DNA of 42,896 bases from Chloroflexota bacterium (GTDB lineage: Bacteria > Chloroflexota > Anaerolineae > Promineifilales > Promineifilaceae), in the NCBI GenBank assembly GCA_046496595.1, contig JAWOGU010000488.1, forward strand, positions 1-42,896, read 5' to 3'. Each line of letters opens with the position of its first letter. Position 1 is the first letter of the stretch. The notes beneath the pieces are model-generated. The model ran no database searches. It was not told where the DNA came from and saw nothing but the letters and a program-made list of their open reading frames with translations. Shown piece after piece: positions 828 to 40,987 of the stretch. Made by a program: the position numbers and the translations under genes.

Positions 828-3682
828 CAGACGGTTTCTCCCAATTTAATGGCCTGGAAGATTTTCATGCGGCGCAGCATGACGGCCAACACGGCCAAAG
901 CGGCCAGGAACAGCAGCACAAAGAGGCCGTAAATCTGGTAGATGGCAGGCCAGGCGATTTCGACGAGGTAGGGCGGCACCAGATCAGAAGCGGTTTCGCC
1001 CGTTTGCAGGTAGGGGATGAACAGGTTGCTGATCCACACGCCCAGGATGGTGCCCAACGTCAGGCCGGTGAGAATGAGAACGGCCGTTTCCGCCGCCACC
1101 AGCGTGATCATCTGCCGGGTAGAGAGGCCAACCGCCCGCAAAATGCCCAGGCTGATAAACCGCCGCCGGAAGGAGAACAAGGCGTACATAAAATACCCCA
1201 GCACCGTCAGCAGCGCCGCCGCCACAAAGCCCACCGACAACTGTCCAAAAAGCCCCTGCCGCGCCGGCCGCGCCTGTTCCACGTTAATCAGCGTGACGGC
1301 TTCTTGCCAGCGCCAGCCAAAGAGGTTGCGCTCTGACAGCGCCTGCTTAAAAGCCGCCTGGTCAAGTTCACCATCAGTCCGCAGCCAGACATTATAGGGA
1401 TATTCGCCGCCCGTCAGCGTAAACAACGTGTCCAGATTGCCCACAAACAAAGGGCCGTCTTCCACCTCATACCAGGTGGGGAAATAATCCAGTTCGCCCA
1501 CAATTTGCGTATCCAGCACCACTTCGCCATCGGTCGTGCCGATGGTCAGGCGGAACAAATCACCCACACGCAGCCCTTTTTCTTGCATGAACTGGCGGGA
1601 GGCTAAAATCGCTTCCGGCGAGGAAGCCAGATTGTTGAGCAGGCTGATCAGGCGCAGATCGGCAAAATCCCAGCGCCAGAAAGCCGTTTCGGCAAAATCA
1701 ATGCGGTCGATGCCCATATAGACGCCGGACTGCCGGCTGCCGCCAATTTGAGCTTTGGCCGGATACTCAGCCACACGCGCCGCTGAAACGACCCCTGGAA
1801 ATTCTTTGTATTCGGACAGCGGCAGGAAGATGGCGCGGTTCGGCCCATCTTCTTGTTCTCCACCGGCGCTGCCAAAGCTGCTGGCGCCAAAGCTGCGGCC
1901 GGCGCCCCACAGGGAAGCGTCTGAGCCTGTCTGGTACAGGGCGTCATCGTATAACTGGAGGTCCAGGGTAAAGGCCAGCGAAGCCGTGAAAGCCGCCAGA
2001 CTGACGGTCAGTACCAGTAAAATAAGCGGCATGGCGTAGGTGCGCGGGGTGCGCGCCAGTTCTCTGCCCGCCAGCAATAGGCCGACGCTGTTGGTTTTGT
2101 ATAACAGCCAACAGAAGGCTTCCATCAGCCAGGGGAACAGGCGCACAAAAATCAAGGTCAAAGACACAATCGCCAGCGTAGGCAAGACAAACAAAAGCGG
2201 ATTTGAGAAGGGGTCGTCGCTTTGGCTTTCGCCCAGGGCAATCAACTGGCCTTGTTCTTGCAGCAGGTAGAAGCCGTAAATCGCCAGCGCCAACAGAATG
2301 ACATCTACCCAGGCGCGCTGCCACCAGGGTTTTTTGAAGGCGCGGGCCTGTTCCTGTTTGTAGGTGATGATGGTGTCTTTGGCGGCCGACAGGGTGGGGA
2401 TAATTTGGGCAATGAGGGCCAGACCAATCGCCAGCAGTCCGGCGCGCAGGGCGGTCTGGTTCATGGTGATTGAAAGTAGTTCGCCGCTGCTGAAATCCAG
2501 GAAGCTGCGTGTTTTGCCCATGAAGGCGGCGATGCTGATAGCAACGGCCGTTCCCAACATAAACGCCAGCATTCCCAAAAACAGCCCTTCCACCAGAGCA
2601 AAACCCAATACCTGCCAGGGCGTTGCCCCCCGGCTGCGCATCACTGCAATCTCATTGCGCCGCTGATCTACCGCCAGCCCCACAATCAAAATGACAAACG
2701 CCAGCACCAGGCCGACAACCGGCACGTTAAAGGCCGTCAGCAGCACTTGCAGCGCCTGCGCCGATTCCCGGTAATCTTGCAGCGCTTTAACCGGCGAGGC
2801 GCTGCCGGAGGTATTGGGCAGCAGGGTGGTGATGCGCCGCTCTACCTGGCTGGCGCCTGCCAGCAGGCGGTCTACCTGTTCTGTGGTCACGCTGCTGCCG
2901 TTGAGCACAAAATACCAGGAGGCGCGGTTGATTTCGCCGCTGATTTGCGGGCTGAGCCAATCGCGGAATGTTTCCACGGGAACAAACAGGGTGTCGTCGA
3001 AGGCGGTGGGAGCAAACAGCCAGTATGGATCTGCTTCGTCGTTGGGCCGCCAGACGCCGCTGATGATGATGGGGATTTCAGGGAGCGGGCTTTCGTCATT
3101 GATAAAGTCATACGCCACCAGGACGTCGCCGACCTGCAAGCCGAGTTCGGTGGCGGCGGCTTCGGCCACCATCACCTCGATGGGAGTTGAGCCGTTGGCC
3201 GTTGGCAGCCGCCCATTCGTCACCACCACATGGTCCGCCAGATTGCTGGCTGTGCCGATGACAAAGATGCCCAGCGATTTAGAATCGTCGGCGTAACTAC
3301 TGGTATCGGCCGGAAACAGTTTGTACCGATCCGTTTCATAAACATCAACAAATTCTTCAACCGGCAGCCCCAATAATTGCCGGCCGCTGCCATTCAGATA
3401 ATCATGGACAGGACGGGTATCCTCCCAGTCCACCGCCCCATACCACGCGCCCACATAATCGTAAAGATAGGCAAATGGCGGGCGGCGGCGCTTGTCGGCG
3501 CTTTCCTGGATATTTTCCTGGAGGATGTTGAGATAAACGGCATCCGCATACAACGGTACAGCCATAATGAGCGCCACGGCTGCCGTAATGCCAATGACAA
3601 TCGCCAGCGTCAGTCCTTTTTGCGCCCACAAACGCTTAAAAGTAATCGTGAAGATAGAGCGGATACGATATAAAAATGACAT
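827..3682 (-). CDS. ABC transporter permease with two FtsX domains (MacB-like, 951 aa)
   Basis: Long ORF with hydrophobic 4-helix bundles at both the middle and the C-terminus, separated by large soluble domains. Translationally coupled to the ATPase (ATGA overlap) and starts 2 nt after the adaptor gene. Confidence 0.85.
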   Translation of the reverse strand: MSFLYRIRSIFTITFKRLWAQKGLTLAIVIGITAAVALIMAVPLYADAVYLNILQENIQESADKRRRPPFAYLYDYVGAWYGAVDWEDTRPVHDYLNGSGRQLLGLPVEEFVDVYETDRYKLFPADTSSYADDSKSLGIFVIGTASNLADHVVVTNGRLPTANGSTPIEVMVAEAAATELGLQVGDVLVAYDFINDESPLPEIPIIISGVWRPNDEADPYWLFAPTAFDDTLFVPVETFRDWLSPQISGEINRASWYFVLNGSSVTTEQVDRLLAGASQVERRITTLLPNTSGSASPVKALQDYRESAQALQVLLTAFNVPVVGLVLAFVILIVGLAVDQRRNEIAVMRSRGATPWQVLGFALVEGLFLGMLAFMLGTAVAISIAAFMGKTRSFLDFSSGELLSITMNQTALRAGLLAIGLALIAQIIPTLSAAKDTIITYKQEQARAFKKPWWQRAWVDVILLALAIYGFYLLQEQGQLIALGESQSDDPFSNPLLFVLPTLAIVSLTLIFVRLFPWLMEAFCWLLYKTNSVGLLLAGRELARTPRTYAMPLILLVLTVSLAAFTASLAFTLDLQLYDDALYQTGSDASLWGAGRSFGASSFGSAGGEQEDGPNRAIFLPLSEYKEFPGVVSAARVAEYPAKAQIGGSRQSGVYMGIDRIDFAETAFWRWDFADLRLISLLNNLASSPEAILASRQFMQEKGLRVGDLFRLTIGTTDGEVVLDTQIVGELDYFPTWYEVEDGPLFVGNLDTLFTLTGGEYPYNVWLRTDGELDQAAFKQALSERNLFGWRWQEAVTLINVEQARPARQGLFGQLSVGFVAAALLTVLGYFMYALFSFRRRFISLGILRAVGLSTRQMITLVAAETAVLILTGLTLGTILGVWISNLFIPYLQTGETASDLVPPYLVEIAWPAIYQIYGLFVLLFLAALAVLAVMLRRMKIFQAIKLGETV

Positions 3683-36414: not shown

Positions 36415-37359
36415 ATGGTATATGTGGAGAATCAAAACATCACCGACCCGCGTCTTAATCTGGGGCTGGAAGAGTATTTGCTGCGCCACGGACCGGTCGA
36501 GGAGCCGATTTTACTCTTTTACGTCAATGAGCCTTCTGTGATTGTGGGGCGCAACCAGAATGTGTGGGAAGAGGTTGACTCGGATTACGTGGCTGCCAAT
36601 GGGGTAAATGTGGTGCGCCGCCTGTCGGGCGGGGGGGCGGTTTACCACGATTGGGGCAATCTCAATTTCAGCTTTATCACCAGCGGCGCACAAAAGCTGC
36701 ACAATTTCCGGCTGTTTCTAGAGCCGGTGATTCGGGTGCTTAACGGCTTGGGTGTACCGGCTGAACTGCACGGCAAGAGCGACATTTACGCCGCCGGCAG
36801 GAAGCTGTCGGGTAACGCGCAATACCTGACCGGACAGCGCCTCGTCAGCCACGGCACCATTTTGTTTGACAGCGATTTGGAAGCGCTGCTGCGCGCCCTG
36901 AATCCGCGCCAGACGCAGATTGAGTCCAGAGCGGTGCAGTCTATCCGGGCGAAGGTGACCAACATTGTGGAGTGGCTGCCGGAGATGGACATGGCAGGCT
37001 TGCGGCAGGCACTGCTGACGGGTATTTTTGCGGGGAAGGCAGTGCAGACCTATGAATTGTCTGACGATGAATGGGCGCGGGTGCAGGAAATGAAGGCGGC
37101 TCGGTATGATACCTGGGCCTGGAATAACGGCCGTTCTCCCCAATTCACCGTCCACAAAGAAGCAGATGGCATCCAGGTTTCCCTGCGAATAGAACGCGGC
37201 TGCATCCAATCCATCACGTTTCCTAATGCGCCTGATCACCCCACCCTCAACCTGCTGCAAACGCAGTTGGCTGGCATCCGGTACCAGCGTCAGGATGTGG
37301 AAAATACGTTACTGGCTCATGGTTCAACATCCCCCAACCTGCTCAAATTCCTATTTTAA
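36415..37359 (+). CDS. lplA: Lipoate-protein ligase A
   Basis: RRLSGGGAVYHDWGNLNFSF and the catalytic lysine region GRKLSGNAQ. Confidence 0.8.
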   Translation: MVYVENQNITDPRLNLGLEEYLLRHGPVEEPILLFYVNEPSVIVGRNQNVWEEVDSDYVAANGVNVVRRLSGGGAVYHDWGNLNFSFITSGAQKLHNFRLFLEPVIRVLNGLGVPAELHGKSDIYAAGRKLSGNAQYLTGQRLVSHGTILFDSDLEALLRALNPRQTQIESRAVQSIRAKVTNIVEWLPEMDMAGLRQALLTGIFAGKAVQTYELSDDEWARVQEMKAARYDTWAWNNGRSPQFTVHKEADGIQVSLRIERGCIQSITFPNAPDHPTLNLLQTQLAGIRYQRQDVENTLLAHGSTSPNLLKFLF

Positions 37360-37362
37360 ATT

Positions 37363-37393
37363 CTCTGCTCCTCCGCGTTCTCCGCGGTGAAAA
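37363..37393. repeat. CTCTGCTCCTCCGCGTTCTCCGCGGTGAAAA element between the convergent lplA and msrB genes
   Basis: Near-identical 3' half (TCTCCGCGGTGAAAA) to the element at 38178-38210. Confidence 0.75.
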
Positions 37394-37786
37394 TTATTTT
37401 TCCTTTCCTTCAAACTTTAACGAAGCAGAATTGACGCAGTAACGCAGACCGGTCGGCTGCGGACCATCGGTGAAGACGTGGCCTAAATGAGCGCCGCACT
37501 CGTCGCAAATAATCTCGGTGCGCACCATAAAATGGCTGCGATCCGTTTCTTCGCGCACGATTTCGTCCTGGAGTGGGGCATAGAAGCTGGGCCAGCCGCA
37601 GCCGGAATCGTATTTTGTCTCAGAGCTAAACAACTCAGCCCCGCAGACCACGCAGGTGTAGACGCCGTTTTCTTTGTGGTCGTAATATTCGCCGGTAAAC
37701 GGCCGTTCCGTGGCCTTCTCCTGAGTGACGTTGTATTGGATAGGAGTGAGGCGTTGGCGTAATTCAGCATCAGATGGTTTGTTCAT
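37394..37786 (-). CDS. msrB: Peptide-methionine (R)-S-oxide reductase
   Basis: SelR domain with two CxxC pairs ([21 protein letters not shown]) and RYCVNS. Start set at the ATG at 37786 ([12 protein letters not shown]) with AGGAGA upstream. The 64-codon N-terminal extension in the ORF track is rejected. Confidence 0.9.
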
Positions 37787-37940
37787 GGGTTTTCTCCTTT
37801 TCTGGAATTTTGGGCATTGTACCCTGCTGCGGCGAGGATGGTGGGAACTGTAAGACTTTGTTAAGGGAAACGGCCGTTGATCTGTGGGACGCCATGCAAA
37901 CGGCCGATTCGTTGGACAGCATTCAAGCCTACGCCGCCCA

Positions 37941-37969
37941 TTGACAGCCCGCCCACCCCATGATAGCAT
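37941..37969 (+). promoter_or_regulatory. Sigma-70-like promoter upstream of the alaS leader region
   Basis: TTGACA, a 17-nt spacer, then TGaTAGCAT (perfect -35, TGn-extended -10). The ATG at 37977 is 8 nt past the -10, so the transcript may be leaderless. Confidence 0.4.
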
Positions 37970-37976
37970 TTCTGCC

Positions 37977-38057
37977 ATGACGAATCAGAGCTTGTTTGTT
38001 TACGAAAGCGCCGCCGCTGCCAGCCACTCCCCCGGTTTGGCTGTTTGCGCTGCCTGA
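37977..38057 (+). CDS. Candidate 26-aa Ala-rich leader peptide [26 protein letters not shown]
   Basis: Hand translation. It has four consecutive Ala codons (GCC GCC GCT GCC) and 7 Ala in 26 residues. A canonical terminator begins 31 nt after its stop, and alaS starts 213 nt after its stop. Confidence 0.3.
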
Positions 38058-38087
38058 TTCCCCAAATCAATTTTCCGGCGCCATCCA

Positions 38088-38122
38088 CCGCCAGACCGAT
38101 TCGCTCAGTCTGGCGGTTTTTT
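38088..38122 (+). terminator. Canonical intrinsic terminator upstream of alaS
   Basis: Perfect 9-bp stem CCGCCAGAC / GTCTGGCGG, an 11-nt loop, then TTTTTT. No annotated plus-strand gene ends here. Confidence 0.7.
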
Positions 38123-38141
38123 GTTGCCGGGGTACAATTCA

Positions 38142-38258
38142 AAAGATTAAAGAATAAAGATTGCTTCACCATAAACCCTCTGCGTTCTCCGCGCTCTCCG
38201 CGGTGAAAAAAGAACTTTTGCCGAAGACCTAATCTTCAATCTTTAATCTTCAATTATT
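38142..38258. repeat. Nested element: (AAAGATT AAAGAAT AAAGATT), spacer containing CTCTGCGTTCTCCGCGCTCTCCGCGGTGAAAAA (38178-38210), then (AATCTTC AATCTTT AATCTTC AATTATT)
   Basis: Heptamers indexed by hand. The right arm ends directly at the alaS RBS GAGGAGA. Confidence 0.8.
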
Positions 38259-38269
38259 GAGGAGACAAC

Positions 38270-40987
38270 ATGAAACCAACAACCAGCAACGAAATCCGAC
38301 AGGCTTTTCTCGACTTTTTCCAGGAAATGAAGCACGAGGTCGTCGCCAGCGCCCCGCTGCCGCAGAAAGACAACCCGACTTTGCTCTTTACCAACGCCGG
38401 CATGAACCAGTTTGTGGACGTGTTTTTGGGGAAGGAAAAACGGCCGTATAACCGCGCCGCCACCTCCCAAAAATGTATGCGCGTGCAGGGTAAACACAAC
38501 GACCTGGAAAATGTCGGGCCATCGCCGCGCCACCACACCTTCTTTGAAATGCTCGGCAACTTCTCCTTTGGCGATTATTTCAAGGAAGGCGCCATCCGCT
38601 ACGGCTACGATTTCCTGACCAAAGTGTGCCAGATTCCGGCCGATCGGCTCTACTTCACCGTCCATACCAGCGACGACGATGCCTACAACATCTGGTTGAA
38701 CGAAATTGGCGCGCCCCCTGAACGCATTTTACGCATGGGCGACAAGACCAATTTCTGGATGATGGGCGATGTTGGTCCCTGCGGCCCCACCAGCGAAATC
38801 CACTACGACTGGGGGCCGGAACCCTGCACCTGCCGCCAGCCCAACTGCTCCGTGCTGCTGGATAACGACTGCGACCGCTGGCTGGAGGTGTGGAACCTGG
38901 TCTTCATGCAATTTGACCAGGCTGAGGACAGTACGCGCACCCCGCTGCCCAAACCGGGCGTCGATACCGGCATGGGATTGGAACGCCTGACCAGCGTCAT
39001 CCAGGGCACGCAGGCCAACTACGACAACGACCTCTTCCTGGCAGCCATGGATAAAGTGCAGGAAATGCTGGGCGACAGCGATGAAGAGCGCCGCGAAAAA
39101 TACGTAGGCTATCGCGTCATTGGCGACCACGGCCGGGCGGCTACCTTCCTCATTGCCGATGGCGTGCGTCCCGGCGCGGCGGCCGCCAGCTACGTGCTGC
39201 GCATGATCATCCGGCGGGCGGCTCGTTTTGGGCGGCAGATTGGCTTTCAACGGCCGTTTCTAGCAGAAGTCGCGCAGGTGTTCATTGACGAAATGGGCGA
39301 ACACTACCCCGAACTGCGCCAGAACCAGGACCACATCAAACACACCCTCACCCAGGAAGAGCGCCGTTTTGCCCGCACCCTCGATCAGGCCATCGTACAG
39401 CTCCTTGCCATCCTCGAAGATATGGGTCAAAAAGGCGAAACCGAAATCTCCGGCGAAGTGGCCTTCGACCTGTACGCCACCTACGGTCTGCCCCTGGAAA
39501 TCACCCGCGACCTCATCCGCGAGCGCAATATCACCATCGACGAAAAAGGCTATGTCAAAGCGCGCGAACTCCACGCCCTTGCCAGCGGTTCAGGCGCGTT
39601 CAAAGGGTACGAACGTGGCACCAACGCCTACGGCGATTTGCTGCTGGAACTGGTGGAAGCGGGTCAACTGGGAGAAAGCGGCGTGGAATATGATCCCTAC
39701 GCCGGTTCGCGGATGCGGGCGGACGTGGTGGCGCTGCTCAAAGATGGGCAGCCGGCGCCGAAACTAAGCGTGGGCGACAAGGCAGAAATCATCACCGCCG
39801 CCACCCCATTTTACGTGGAAGCGGGCGGCGAGGTCAGCGATACCGGCGTCATCGACTTCCTGGACACCGGGGCGCAGTTCCGCGTGCATACCGTCGCCAA
39901 ACCGGTTCCCGGACTGGTCATCCACTTAGGCGAAGTGGTGCGGGGCGACATTGAAGTGGGGCAGGAAGCGCGGCTGCTGGTGGACGATGCCCGCCGCGCC
40001 GACATTCGGCGGAACCACACCGCCACCCACATTTTGCACCGCGAACTGCGCGCTCACCTGGGTACGCACGTCACTCAGCAGGGATCGCTCGTCGCCCCCG
40101 ACCGCCTGCGTTTCGACTTCTCCCACAATCAGGCGGTGGACAAAACCACGTTGGCAGCCATTGAAGCGGACATCAACCGGGCGATCCTGGCAAATTACCC
40201 CGTCAAAATTCATTACATGGGCCAGAAAGAAGCCATCGACAAAGGCGCCATGGCCCTGTTTGGCGAAAAATACGGCGACATCGTGCGCACCATCACCATT
40301 GGCGGTGAAAGCAGCGGAGCCATTGACTCCGCCTATAGCATGGAACTGTGCGGCGGCCTGCACGTCAGCGAAACCAACGACATCGGCCAGTTCCATTTTG
40401 TGCATGAAGGAGCGGTGGCGGCCGGCGTGCGCCGCATTGAGGCTGTGACCGGGCGCGGCGCGCAGGCGTTGATTGCCGAGCGGCTGGCGGTGCTGGAGCG
40501 TGTGGAACAGCTTCTCAATGCGCCGCTGAACGAGGTGGAAACCCGTCTTACAAACTTGTTGGCGGATCACAAGGCGCTGCAAAAGGAATTCGGCCAGCTT
40601 CAACGGCAGGCGGCGCGCTCCCAATTTGATGCGCTCCTGGCGCAGGTGCAGGAGGTGGCGGGCGTTAAGCTGCTGGCGGCGCAGGTAGACGTTTCCGACG
40701 TGGACACCATGCGCGAGATGGCCGACTGGTTCCGCGACAAGGCAGTCTCCGGTGTGGCGGTGCTGGCGGCGGTGAACGAGGGCAAACCGGTGTTTATCGT
40801 CACGGTGAGTGACGATCTGGTGAAACGCGGCCTGAAAGCGGGCGACATTGTACGCGAGGTTGCTAAGGTGGTGGGCGGCGGCGGCGGCGGCCGGCCAAAC
40901 ATGGCTCAGGCTGGCGGTCGAGACGCGGCGAAGATTCCGGAAGCGCTGGCGTTGGCGCCGGGGCTGGTGGAAGCGGCGTTAAGTTAA
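38270..40987 (+). CDS. alaS: Alanine--tRNA ligase
   Basis: FTNAGMNQF, HHTFFEMLGNFSFGDY, WMMGDVGPCGPTSEIHYD, editing-domain HTATHIL / CGGLHV, and a C-terminal DHHA1-like GGGGGRPNMAQAGG. Confidence 0.95.
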   Translation: MKPTTSNEIRQAFLDFFQEMKHEVVASAPLPQKDNPTLLFTNAGMNQFVDVFLGKEKRPYNRAATSQKCMRVQGKHNDLENVGPSPRHHTFFEMLGNFSFGDYFKEGAIRYGYDFLTKVCQIPADRLYFTVHTSDDDAYNIWLNEIGAPPERILRMGDKTNFWMMGDVGPCGPTSEIHYDWGPEPCTCRQPNCSVLLDNDCDRWLEVWNLVFMQFDQAEDSTRTPLPKPGVDTGMGLERLTSVIQGTQANYDNDLFLAAMDKVQEMLGDSDEERREKYVGYRVIGDHGRAATFLIADGVRPGAAAASYVLRMIIRRAARFGRQIGFQRPFLAEVAQVFIDEMGEHYPELRQNQDHIKHTLTQEERRFARTLDQAIVQLLAILEDMGQKGETEISGEVAFDLYATYGLPLEITRDLIRERNITIDEKGYVKARELHALASGSGAFKGYERGTNAYGDLLLELVEAGQLGESGVEYDPYAGSRMRADVVALLKDGQPAPKLSVGDKAEIITAATPFYVEAGGEVSDTGVIDFLDTGAQFRVHTVAKPVPGLVIHLGEVVRGDIEVGQEARLLVDDARRADIRRNHTATHILHRELRAHLGTHVTQQGSLVAPDRLRFDFSHNQAVDKTTLAAIEADINRAILANYPVKIHYMGQKEAIDKGAMALFGEKYGDIVRTITIGGESSGAIDSAYSMELCGGLHVSETNDIGQFHFVHEGAVAAGVRRIEAVTGRGAQALIAERLAVLERVEQLLNAPLNEVETRLTNLLADHKALQKEFGQLQRQAARSQFDALLAQVQEVAGVKLLAAQVDVSDVDTMREMADWFRDKAVSGVAVLAAVNEGKPVFIVTVSDDLVKRGLKAGDIVREVAKVVGGGGGGRPNMAQAGGRDAAKIPEALALAPGLVEAALS

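Follow-up and report, generated by a model that had tools for sequence, protein, structure and literature searches.

To our knowledge, very few reports beyond those on pheST of Escherichia coli document aminoacyl-tRNA synthetase genes under the control of leader-peptide attenuation, and the pheM-pheST attenuator, reportedly described by Fayat and co-workers in 1983 and by Springer and co-workers in 1983-85, is the only case we know of in which attenuation of a synthetase gene through a leader peptide by its own charged tRNA has been established experimentally. Here, we describe a comparable element upstream of alaS, the gene for alanine–tRNA ligase (AlaRS), in a 42,896-nt stretch of DNA (contig JAWOGU010000488.1; hereafter, the window), which is part of a fragmented genome assembly of 751 contigs from a Chloroflexota/Anaerolineae-type bacterium. 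The element is very probably a classical ribosome-mediated transcription attenuator of the trp/pheST type that couples alaS to the supply of charged tRNA-Ala. It shares with pheM-pheST a run of cognate codons in a leader peptide, a terminator/antiterminator switch behind it, and a synthetase gene as the target. The pheM-pheST leader senses Phe and is equipped with a Shine-Dalgarno sequence; the element in the window, by contrast, is predicted to be leaderless and Ala-sensing, with a probable second promoter past its terminator.

The trp, his, leu, and thr attenuators (Rfam Trp_leader, His_leader, and others) follow the same 1:2, 2:3, 3:4 design: the regulatory codons immediately precede segment 1, segments 2 and 3 are separated by the stop codon, and the decision between terminator and antiterminator is kinetic. 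However, these attenuators control biosynthetic operons of Proteobacteria; the window's element has no sequence or Rfam similarity to them, and its predicted translation is leaderless. In Firmicutes, a T-box riboswitch is found before alaS, and in E. coli AlaRS is said to repress its own gene at the alaS promoter, as Putney and Schimmel reportedly described in 1981. The gene and the signal (tRNA-Ala charging, or AlaRS with alanine) are the same in these systems and in the window, but the sensor in the window would be the ribosome rather than a tRNA-binding RNA (T-box) or a repressor enzyme (E. coli AlaRS).

Leaderless polycysteine short open reading frames (ORFs) of mycobacteria are Cys-responsive attenuators (bioRxiv 10.1101/834739); they are likewise leaderless, carry a cognate-codon run, and regulate downstream genes, whereas the amino acid, the genes, and the phylum differ. 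Structured and uncharacterised 5′ elements of alaS have been mentioned in Flavobacteriaceae (PMC9723704). One precedent was found for leader-peptide control of alaS, of which the original prediction for this locus, made from the letters of the window alone, had known no example. This is the alaL ORF of Streptomyces lividans TK24, which is leaderless and has 22 codons, six of them for Ala; it was detected by RNA-seq and called unseen before (Droste et al., 2021, Front Microbiol, PMC8079986), in a study that also gives thrS, trpS, and leuS leaders. S. lividans alaL resembles the window's element in being a leaderless Ala-rich short ORF (MNVIGRNIFATARATSSPVAAA, then a stop) directly upstream of alaS and a proposed attenuator. 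In contrast to the window's element, it belongs to Actinomycetota, its peptide shares no motif with the window's, and its Ala codons are at the very end of the ORF. It is known from RNA-seq of one strain, without comparative or structural analysis (PMC8079986), and homology between the two elements, compared by peptide alone, is unlikely. A literature search on Chloroflexi with attenuators or leader peptides, which did not cover the survey of Lopatovskaya et al. (2010), returned nothing specific.

The promoter, the mini-ORF with four Ala codons, and the terminator that the original prediction had placed between msrB and alaS were all present, accurate to within a base or two. On the plus strand, promoter P1 consists of the −35 hexamer TTGACA (37941–37946), a 17-nt spacer, and the extended −10 element TGaTAGCAT (37961–37969). 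It scored 10/12 plus the extended TG (37961–62) in a sigma-70 scan, with TAGCAT (37964–37969) as the −10 hexamer, and was the sole sigma-70-like match within 37000–39000. The leader ORF, labeled alaL and predicted to be leaderless, occupies 37977–38057 on the same strand and comprises 26 codons and a TGA stop codon (38055–57). Its ATG (37977–37979) lies 7 nt past the −10 of P1, one less than first counted, a spacing that upholds the leaderless placement and is too short to accommodate a Shine-Dalgarno sequence. The Ala run, GCC GCC GCT GCC, comprises four codons in a row (38010–38021). The strong intrinsic terminator (38087–38122) has a 10-bp stem (ACCGCCAGAC/GUCUGGCGGU) followed by T6 and starts 30 nt past the leader stop codon, where a 9-bp stem and a distance of 31 nt had been given. 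Its energy is −20.0 kcal/mol (z = −5.5), and 0/200 shuffled sequences were as good. The putatively regulated gene, alaS (38270–40987, plus strand; 905 aa; TIGR00344, 869.9 bits), has the Shine-Dalgarno sequence AGGAG at 38260–64, and msrB (TIGR00357) starts at 37786 on the minus strand.

Four RNA segments on the plus strand can pair in mutually exclusive ways. Segment 1 (CAGCCACUCC, 38021–38030), the anti-antiterminator strand, has the final base of the Ala run as its first, and segment 2 (CGGUUUGGCUG, 38033–38043), which can pair with segment 1 or segment 3, ends 12 nt short of the leader stop codon. Segment 3 (ACCGCCAGACCG, 38087–38098) combines the terminator 5′ arm ACCGCCAGAC (38087–38096) with the antiterminator 3′ strand GCCAGACCG (38090–98). 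Segment 4 (GUCUGGCGGU, 38108–38117) and the T6 tract (38117–38122) together make up the terminator 3′ arm and U-run (38108–38122). The energy of hairpin 1:2 is −11.0 kcal/mol. Antiterminator 2:3 has a 9-bp outer helix of CGGUUUGGC (38033–41) with GCCAGACCG and an inner helix in which GCGCUG (38047–38052), within the last sense codons of the ORF, pairs with CGGCGC (38076–38081). The fold of 38031–38100 that contains both helices has an energy of −25.5 kcal/mol (z −4.0; 0/200 shuffles), and the fold of the 150-nt leader beats 199/200 shuffles (z −2.9). An ORF at the 5′ end, cognate codons, a terminator, an exclusive antiterminator, and a suitably placed 1:2 hairpin were thus all found at the locus, the ribosome footprint sizes used for the placement being taken from general knowledge. 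No Rfam family, T-box included, matched the region (both strands, E ≤ 10) or the whole window (gathering threshold), and the output at these settings comprised only chance matches (icd-II, RefA9, and a miRNA). The T-box covariance model, with its specifier loop and T-box sequence, likewise gave no match on either strand at E ≤ 10, in agreement with the earlier statement that no T-box motif was present. ARAGORN found no tRNA.

When relatives were searched at the DNA level, two species of the genus, as well as two other genera, proved to carry this stretch before alaS. A promoter, a near-leaderless ATG, a mini-ORF with 4–5 Ala codons, and the same terminator together with a GGTAAAAT box were present in every case. 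A covariance model, R1, built from an alignment of seven leaders (A1), matched 124/160 genomes and 30/36 genera of the window's own family, from which a search across the order mostly re-sampled. The sister family gave three weak matches only, and there were zero matches in about 299 genomes from the rest of the phylum Chloroflexota. Each genome had 1–4 matches; since there are at most 2–4 per genome, the R1 element is not a dispersed repeat. Fifty-six strong matches were fetched and aligned, and all pair counts below are based on them. alaS adjoins all 56, its start being 26–189 nt downstream (median, 92) in the 51 loci where it was located, and an in-frame mini-ORF is present in 54.

The geometry of these 54 leaders is nearly constant. 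A promoter TTGAC(A)-N16-18-TAnnnT precedes the ORF in 49/54, with the ATG 6–7 nt past the −10 in 30 of these and 8–13 nt past it in the remainder. The conservation of an Ala-run mini-ORF upstream of alaS, which the original prediction had named as a check, was confirmed in that 53/54 carry 3–7 Ala codons: runs of 2, 3, 4, 5, 6, and 7 occur in 1, 6, 16, 20, 8, and 3 leaders, respectively. The run ends 30–36 nt ahead of the stop codon in 53/54 leaders, and in the same 53 the stop codon lies 25–40 nt ahead of the terminator; the sole exception is L169, in which an early stop makes these distances 9 and 50 nt. The N-terminal part of the peptide varies, and what is kept is the frame, the Ala run, the stop position, and the distances. 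The full arrangement is retained across at least 18 genera.

Promoter-like and terminator-like sites are common by themselves, as shuffled sequence yields a mean of 1.2 promoters and 3.0 terminators per 2 kb, and a functionless chance ORF between two such sites could be imagined. The comparative data refute this explanation, to which we assign next to no probability: the whole arrangement is kept in the 18 or more genera, and AAAA occurs in only 0.52% of 37,443 short ORFs (15–45 codons) of the window's genome. Furthermore, among the 76 alaS loci of other bacteria in the matches listed for the AlaRS N-terminus, which came mostly from distant phyla and served as a negative control, an Ala-run ORF with a T-run was found in only two, both members of the window's own family, and the signature was found in none of the 74 unrelated alaS loci among the matches listed. 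The observed arrangement is therefore more than chance. As a separate observation, one genome (G069:C1; 9% contamination) has two alaS genes (L115 and L136), each with its own Ala leader of 5 and 7 Ala codons, respectively, which points to a genuine duplication or else to a mixed bin.

The pairings of the switch are conserved as well. The terminator-state pairs were paired in 88.9% of cases, with covariation above that of 500/500 shuffles, compared to 25–37% in slid controls. Within this state, helix 1:2 was 85.5% paired with four pairs changed on both sides, and the terminator helix was 99.8% paired, GGCGG followed by a T-run being present in 56/56 sequences. The outer antiterminator helix was paired in 96.6% of cells, with two pairs changed on both sides, and the whole 14-pair antiterminator structure reached 75.0%, compared to 23–43% in slid controls. 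A compensatory change was found in L130 and L136, where segment 2 becomes CCCUGG, segment 3 gains GGGCAGGG, and segment 4 is unchanged. Both hairpins share the words CCAGAC/GUCUGG in most relatives, which fits a switch because the exchange of partners needs them. The inner antiterminator helix differs by lineage: a version taken from G012 (TTGTTG:CAACGA) was tried as a conserved helix and rejected at 46% column by column, and the window's GCGCUG:CGGCGC is lineage-specific.

Folding was simulated for 54 leaders, with ribosome masks and with or without segment 4, and gave the mutually exclusive terminator and antiterminator pairs that the original prediction had proposed to look for. The terminator formed in 47/54 leaders as free RNA and in 54/54 with a ribosome at the stop codon. 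When the ribosome was placed on the final Ala codon and segment 4 was still missing from the transcript, a 2:3 pairing of at least 5 bp formed in 53/54. The simulated folds and the conserved pairings support a trp-type four-segment switch.

Partial complementarity between the Ala tract and CCGGCGCC had also been pointed out. The pairing of GCGCCG (38008–13) with CGGCGC (38076–81) does exist and belongs to the minimum free energy fold, but it failed as the conserved core of the switch, with 55% of cells paired compared to 30–42% in slid controls, and it is kept here as a local extra pairing. This pairing bears on a different explanation, namely that the attenuator is coupled to translation in general and senses ribosome availability or speed in the manner of pyrBI, the Ala codons being GC-rich filler or a pairing element. 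The Ala tract can pair with CGGCGC in free RNA, GCC-rich runs resemble the terminator 5′ arm, and a few homologues have only 2–3 Ala codons. However, the low conservation of the pairing speaks against this explanation, and the third codon positions vary while GCN is kept: the 54 leaders use GCC 156, GCT 76, GCA 13, and GCG 8 times, and L121, for example, has GCG GCA GCA GCC. Together with the Arg codons that occupy the same position in a related leader, described below, these data make a sensor of general translation very improbable.

Most genomes contain a second, weaker R1 match (47–65 bits), which is the same four-segment RNA located before argC and carrying a run of Arg codons. In the window's genome, this Arg leader is on another contig (G000:C626, about 3419–3607; locus L131, about 420–610). 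Its promoter, TTGACA-N17-TAACAT, is followed after 9 nt by an ATG that opens the peptide MINFVSSFPRRLRRRQTFGLGFWVG, ending at a stop codon. The hairpin CGCCAGACC/GGUCUGG and the terminator CCGUCAGACC...GGUCUGACGG with U9 come next, and then argC (TIGR01850, 380 bits). The Ala and Arg leaders have in common CCAGAC/GUCUGG in both hairpins, a CCG(C/U)CAGAC...GUCUGGCGG-U(n) terminator, and a leaderless start, and their common peptide tail, QTxGL, is the translation of the hairpin CAGAC...GUCUG. The sensor codons differ, with the Arg codons at the same position as the Ala run. Among more than 85 fetched loci, the Ala run always occurred with alaS and the Arg run with argC, and no crossed case was found. 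The alaS and argC leaders may be paralogues built on one RNA switch chassis and retargeted by duplication and codon swap, with the 3′ arm and U-tract of the alaS terminator doubling as the upstream region of a second promoter, P2; we put this proposal forward tentatively, at slightly less than an even chance. With the conserved ORF, the variable third positions of the run, the constant geometry, and the antiterminator, the Arg twin supports the Ala-codon leader-peptide attenuator that was originally suggested for alaS. What has been observed directly comprises the elements of the sequence and their degree of conservation, the competing pairings, and the fit of the sensor codons to the downstream gene.

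A blind scan of the genome for a consensus promoter, an ATG 5–12 nt later, an ORF of 8–45 codons, and a hairpin with a T-run returned ten loci. Six of them had cognate runs: Ala/alaS, Arg/argC, His/hisG, Phe/aroH, Phe/pheS, and Leu/leuS. The four additional leaders are a His-rich leader before hisG (C258, about 1509–1769, minus strand), a Phe leader with FFGFYFFF before the chorismate mutase gene aroH (C267:2511–2770), a Phe leader with FFSFFFF before pheS (C675:2430–2690), and a Leu-rich leader before leuS (C624:1732–2180). In hairpin sequence, these four show no relationship to the Ala and Arg leaders. Because six cognate leaders were recovered, leader-peptide attenuation with leaderless translation appears to be in general use in this organism. 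Its leuS and pheS leaders have a parallel in the thrS, trpS, and leuS leaders of S. lividans (PMC8079986).

Directly past the terminator, alignment A1 contains a box GGTA(A/C)AAT that is invariant in many genera and which in the window is GGTACAAT (38131–38138, plus strand) and in relatives GGTAAAAT. Conservation and deletion variants suggest that it is the −10 of P2, a probable second promoter that would be weak, −35-less, and unattenuated and would give basal alaS expression. P2 was not called by the sigma-70 consensus scan of 37000–39000, and its upstream region probably overlaps the terminator 3′ arm and U-tract. Two species of the window's genus lack the leader. In G001, about 215 bp have been cleanly deleted (window about 37877–38093), and with them P1, the ORF, and segments 1–3 (L004), and in G003, unrelated sequence stands in place of the ORF (L006). 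Segment 4, the T6 tract, the box, and alaS are kept in both. In another genus, a TGCTAAAAT box lies about 20 nt ahead of the alaS ATG. From this deletion and replacement within a genus, the attenuator appears to be gained or lost on short time scales.

These variants, the strength of the terminator, and the −10-like conserved box right past it would also be expected if the ORF belonged to an independent unit, either a small protein gene or a small RNA of ~145 nt, that merely lies beside alaS, with alaS transcribed only from the box. Attenuator-derived RNAs are known to act in trans elsewhere (rnTrpL of Sinorhizobium; PMC6614838). On the other hand, conservation of the peptide is limited to the Ala run and to the stretch encoding hairpin 1:2, the sensor codons fit the downstream gene in every Ala and Arg case, and a gene standing on its own would have no use for a conserved antiterminator. 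Moreover, alaS starts 26–55 nt past the terminator in some genera. Only one metatranscriptome (X25) contains the stretch, in a contig with one mismatch and a depth of 3.3 that covers 37998–38167; this contig begins within the ORF, crosses the terminator, and ends 45 nt past it. The contig is weakly consistent with read-through RNA, and its continuation through the terminator is a further point against separation from alaS. An independent unit is accordingly improbable, although a little less so than a sensor of general translation. The terminated leader may still arise as a ~145-nt small-RNA by-product; nothing requires it.

With attenuation of alaS as the preferred explanation, the following mechanism can be proposed. 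The P1 transcript would start at the AUG or within a base or two of it, and the 26-codon leader would be translated without a Shine-Dalgarno sequence. When Ala-tRNA is scarce, owing to low alanine or low AlaRS activity, the ribosome would stall on the Ala codons (38010–38021), and its footprint would cover segment 1, whose first base is the last of the run, leaving segment 2 free. Segment 2 (38033–43) could then pair with segment 3 (38090–98) as soon as the latter is made, so that the terminator 5′ arm is held and the polymerase continues into alaS. When Ala-tRNA is plentiful, the ribosome would reach the UGA (38055–57) and mask the inner antiterminator helix along with the 3′ portion of segment 2; alternatively, it would depart and hairpin 1:2 would re-form. 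Segment 3 would then pair with segment 4, and transcription would end at the U-tract (38117–22). The weak P2 (box 38131–38) would supply basal alaS transcription, to which the attenuated P1 adds a regulated share.

Several points weigh against this interpretation. Once segment 4 is made, the terminator is the minimum in 54/54 leaders even with segment 1 masked; in the window, the terminator state is at −30.8 kcal/mol and the antiterminator at −25.5 kcal/mol. Since the terminator is the thermodynamic minimum at that stage, read-through must be kinetic, as in trp. Some homologues are degenerate, such as L151 with SAIAT, L170 with two Ala codons, and L169 with its early stop. The absence of the leader in G001 and G003 indicates that the device is dispensable and that alaS probably has its own promoter. 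The X25 contig is weak evidence, as contaminating DNA is possible and contig ends are meaningless. That transcription starts from P1 and terminates with a 3′ end at 38122, that the ORF is translated and ribosomes stall on it, that alaS responds to alanine or tRNA charging, and that P2 is a promoter are predictions from the sequence. In addition, alanine is rarely limiting, so the signal would more likely be AlaRS activity than alanine itself.

Short repeats were observed around the leader. A palindrome, ACGGCCGT, at 37869–37880 of the window is frequent in the window's genome, and in relatives it is often directly adjacent to the leader promoter's −35 hexamer (TTGACACGGCCGT...), as in L108, L154, L158, and L163. 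The alaS 5′ untranslated region (38142–38262) is packed with short dispersed repeats, namely the heptamers AAAGATT/AATCTTC, which form arms, and a CTCTGCGTTCTCCGCGCTCTCCGCGGTGAAAA element. Both are present in many copies in the window's genome and in related genomes, and other heptamers are found at the same place in relatives.

The mechanism proposed here is a classical one; the gene that it would control is an unusual target, and the phylum has been little studied. Of most interest are the choice of gene, the leaderless layout, the conservation throughout the family, and the use of one RNA chassis by the Ala and Arg leaders. The design of an alaS leader is now backed by more than 60 independent alaS-linked sequences, a conserved antiterminator, and an internal control in the form of Arg/argC. 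For annotators, this provides an unannotated regulatory gene and, for experimenters, a compact candidate Ala-tRNA sensor with an Arg twin. The locus also adds evidence that leaderless translation and attenuation go together outside Actinomycetota. Together with the His, Phe, and Leu leaders, these results suggest that a largely uncultured lineage of Chloroflexota relies on leaderless, ribosome-sensed attenuation.

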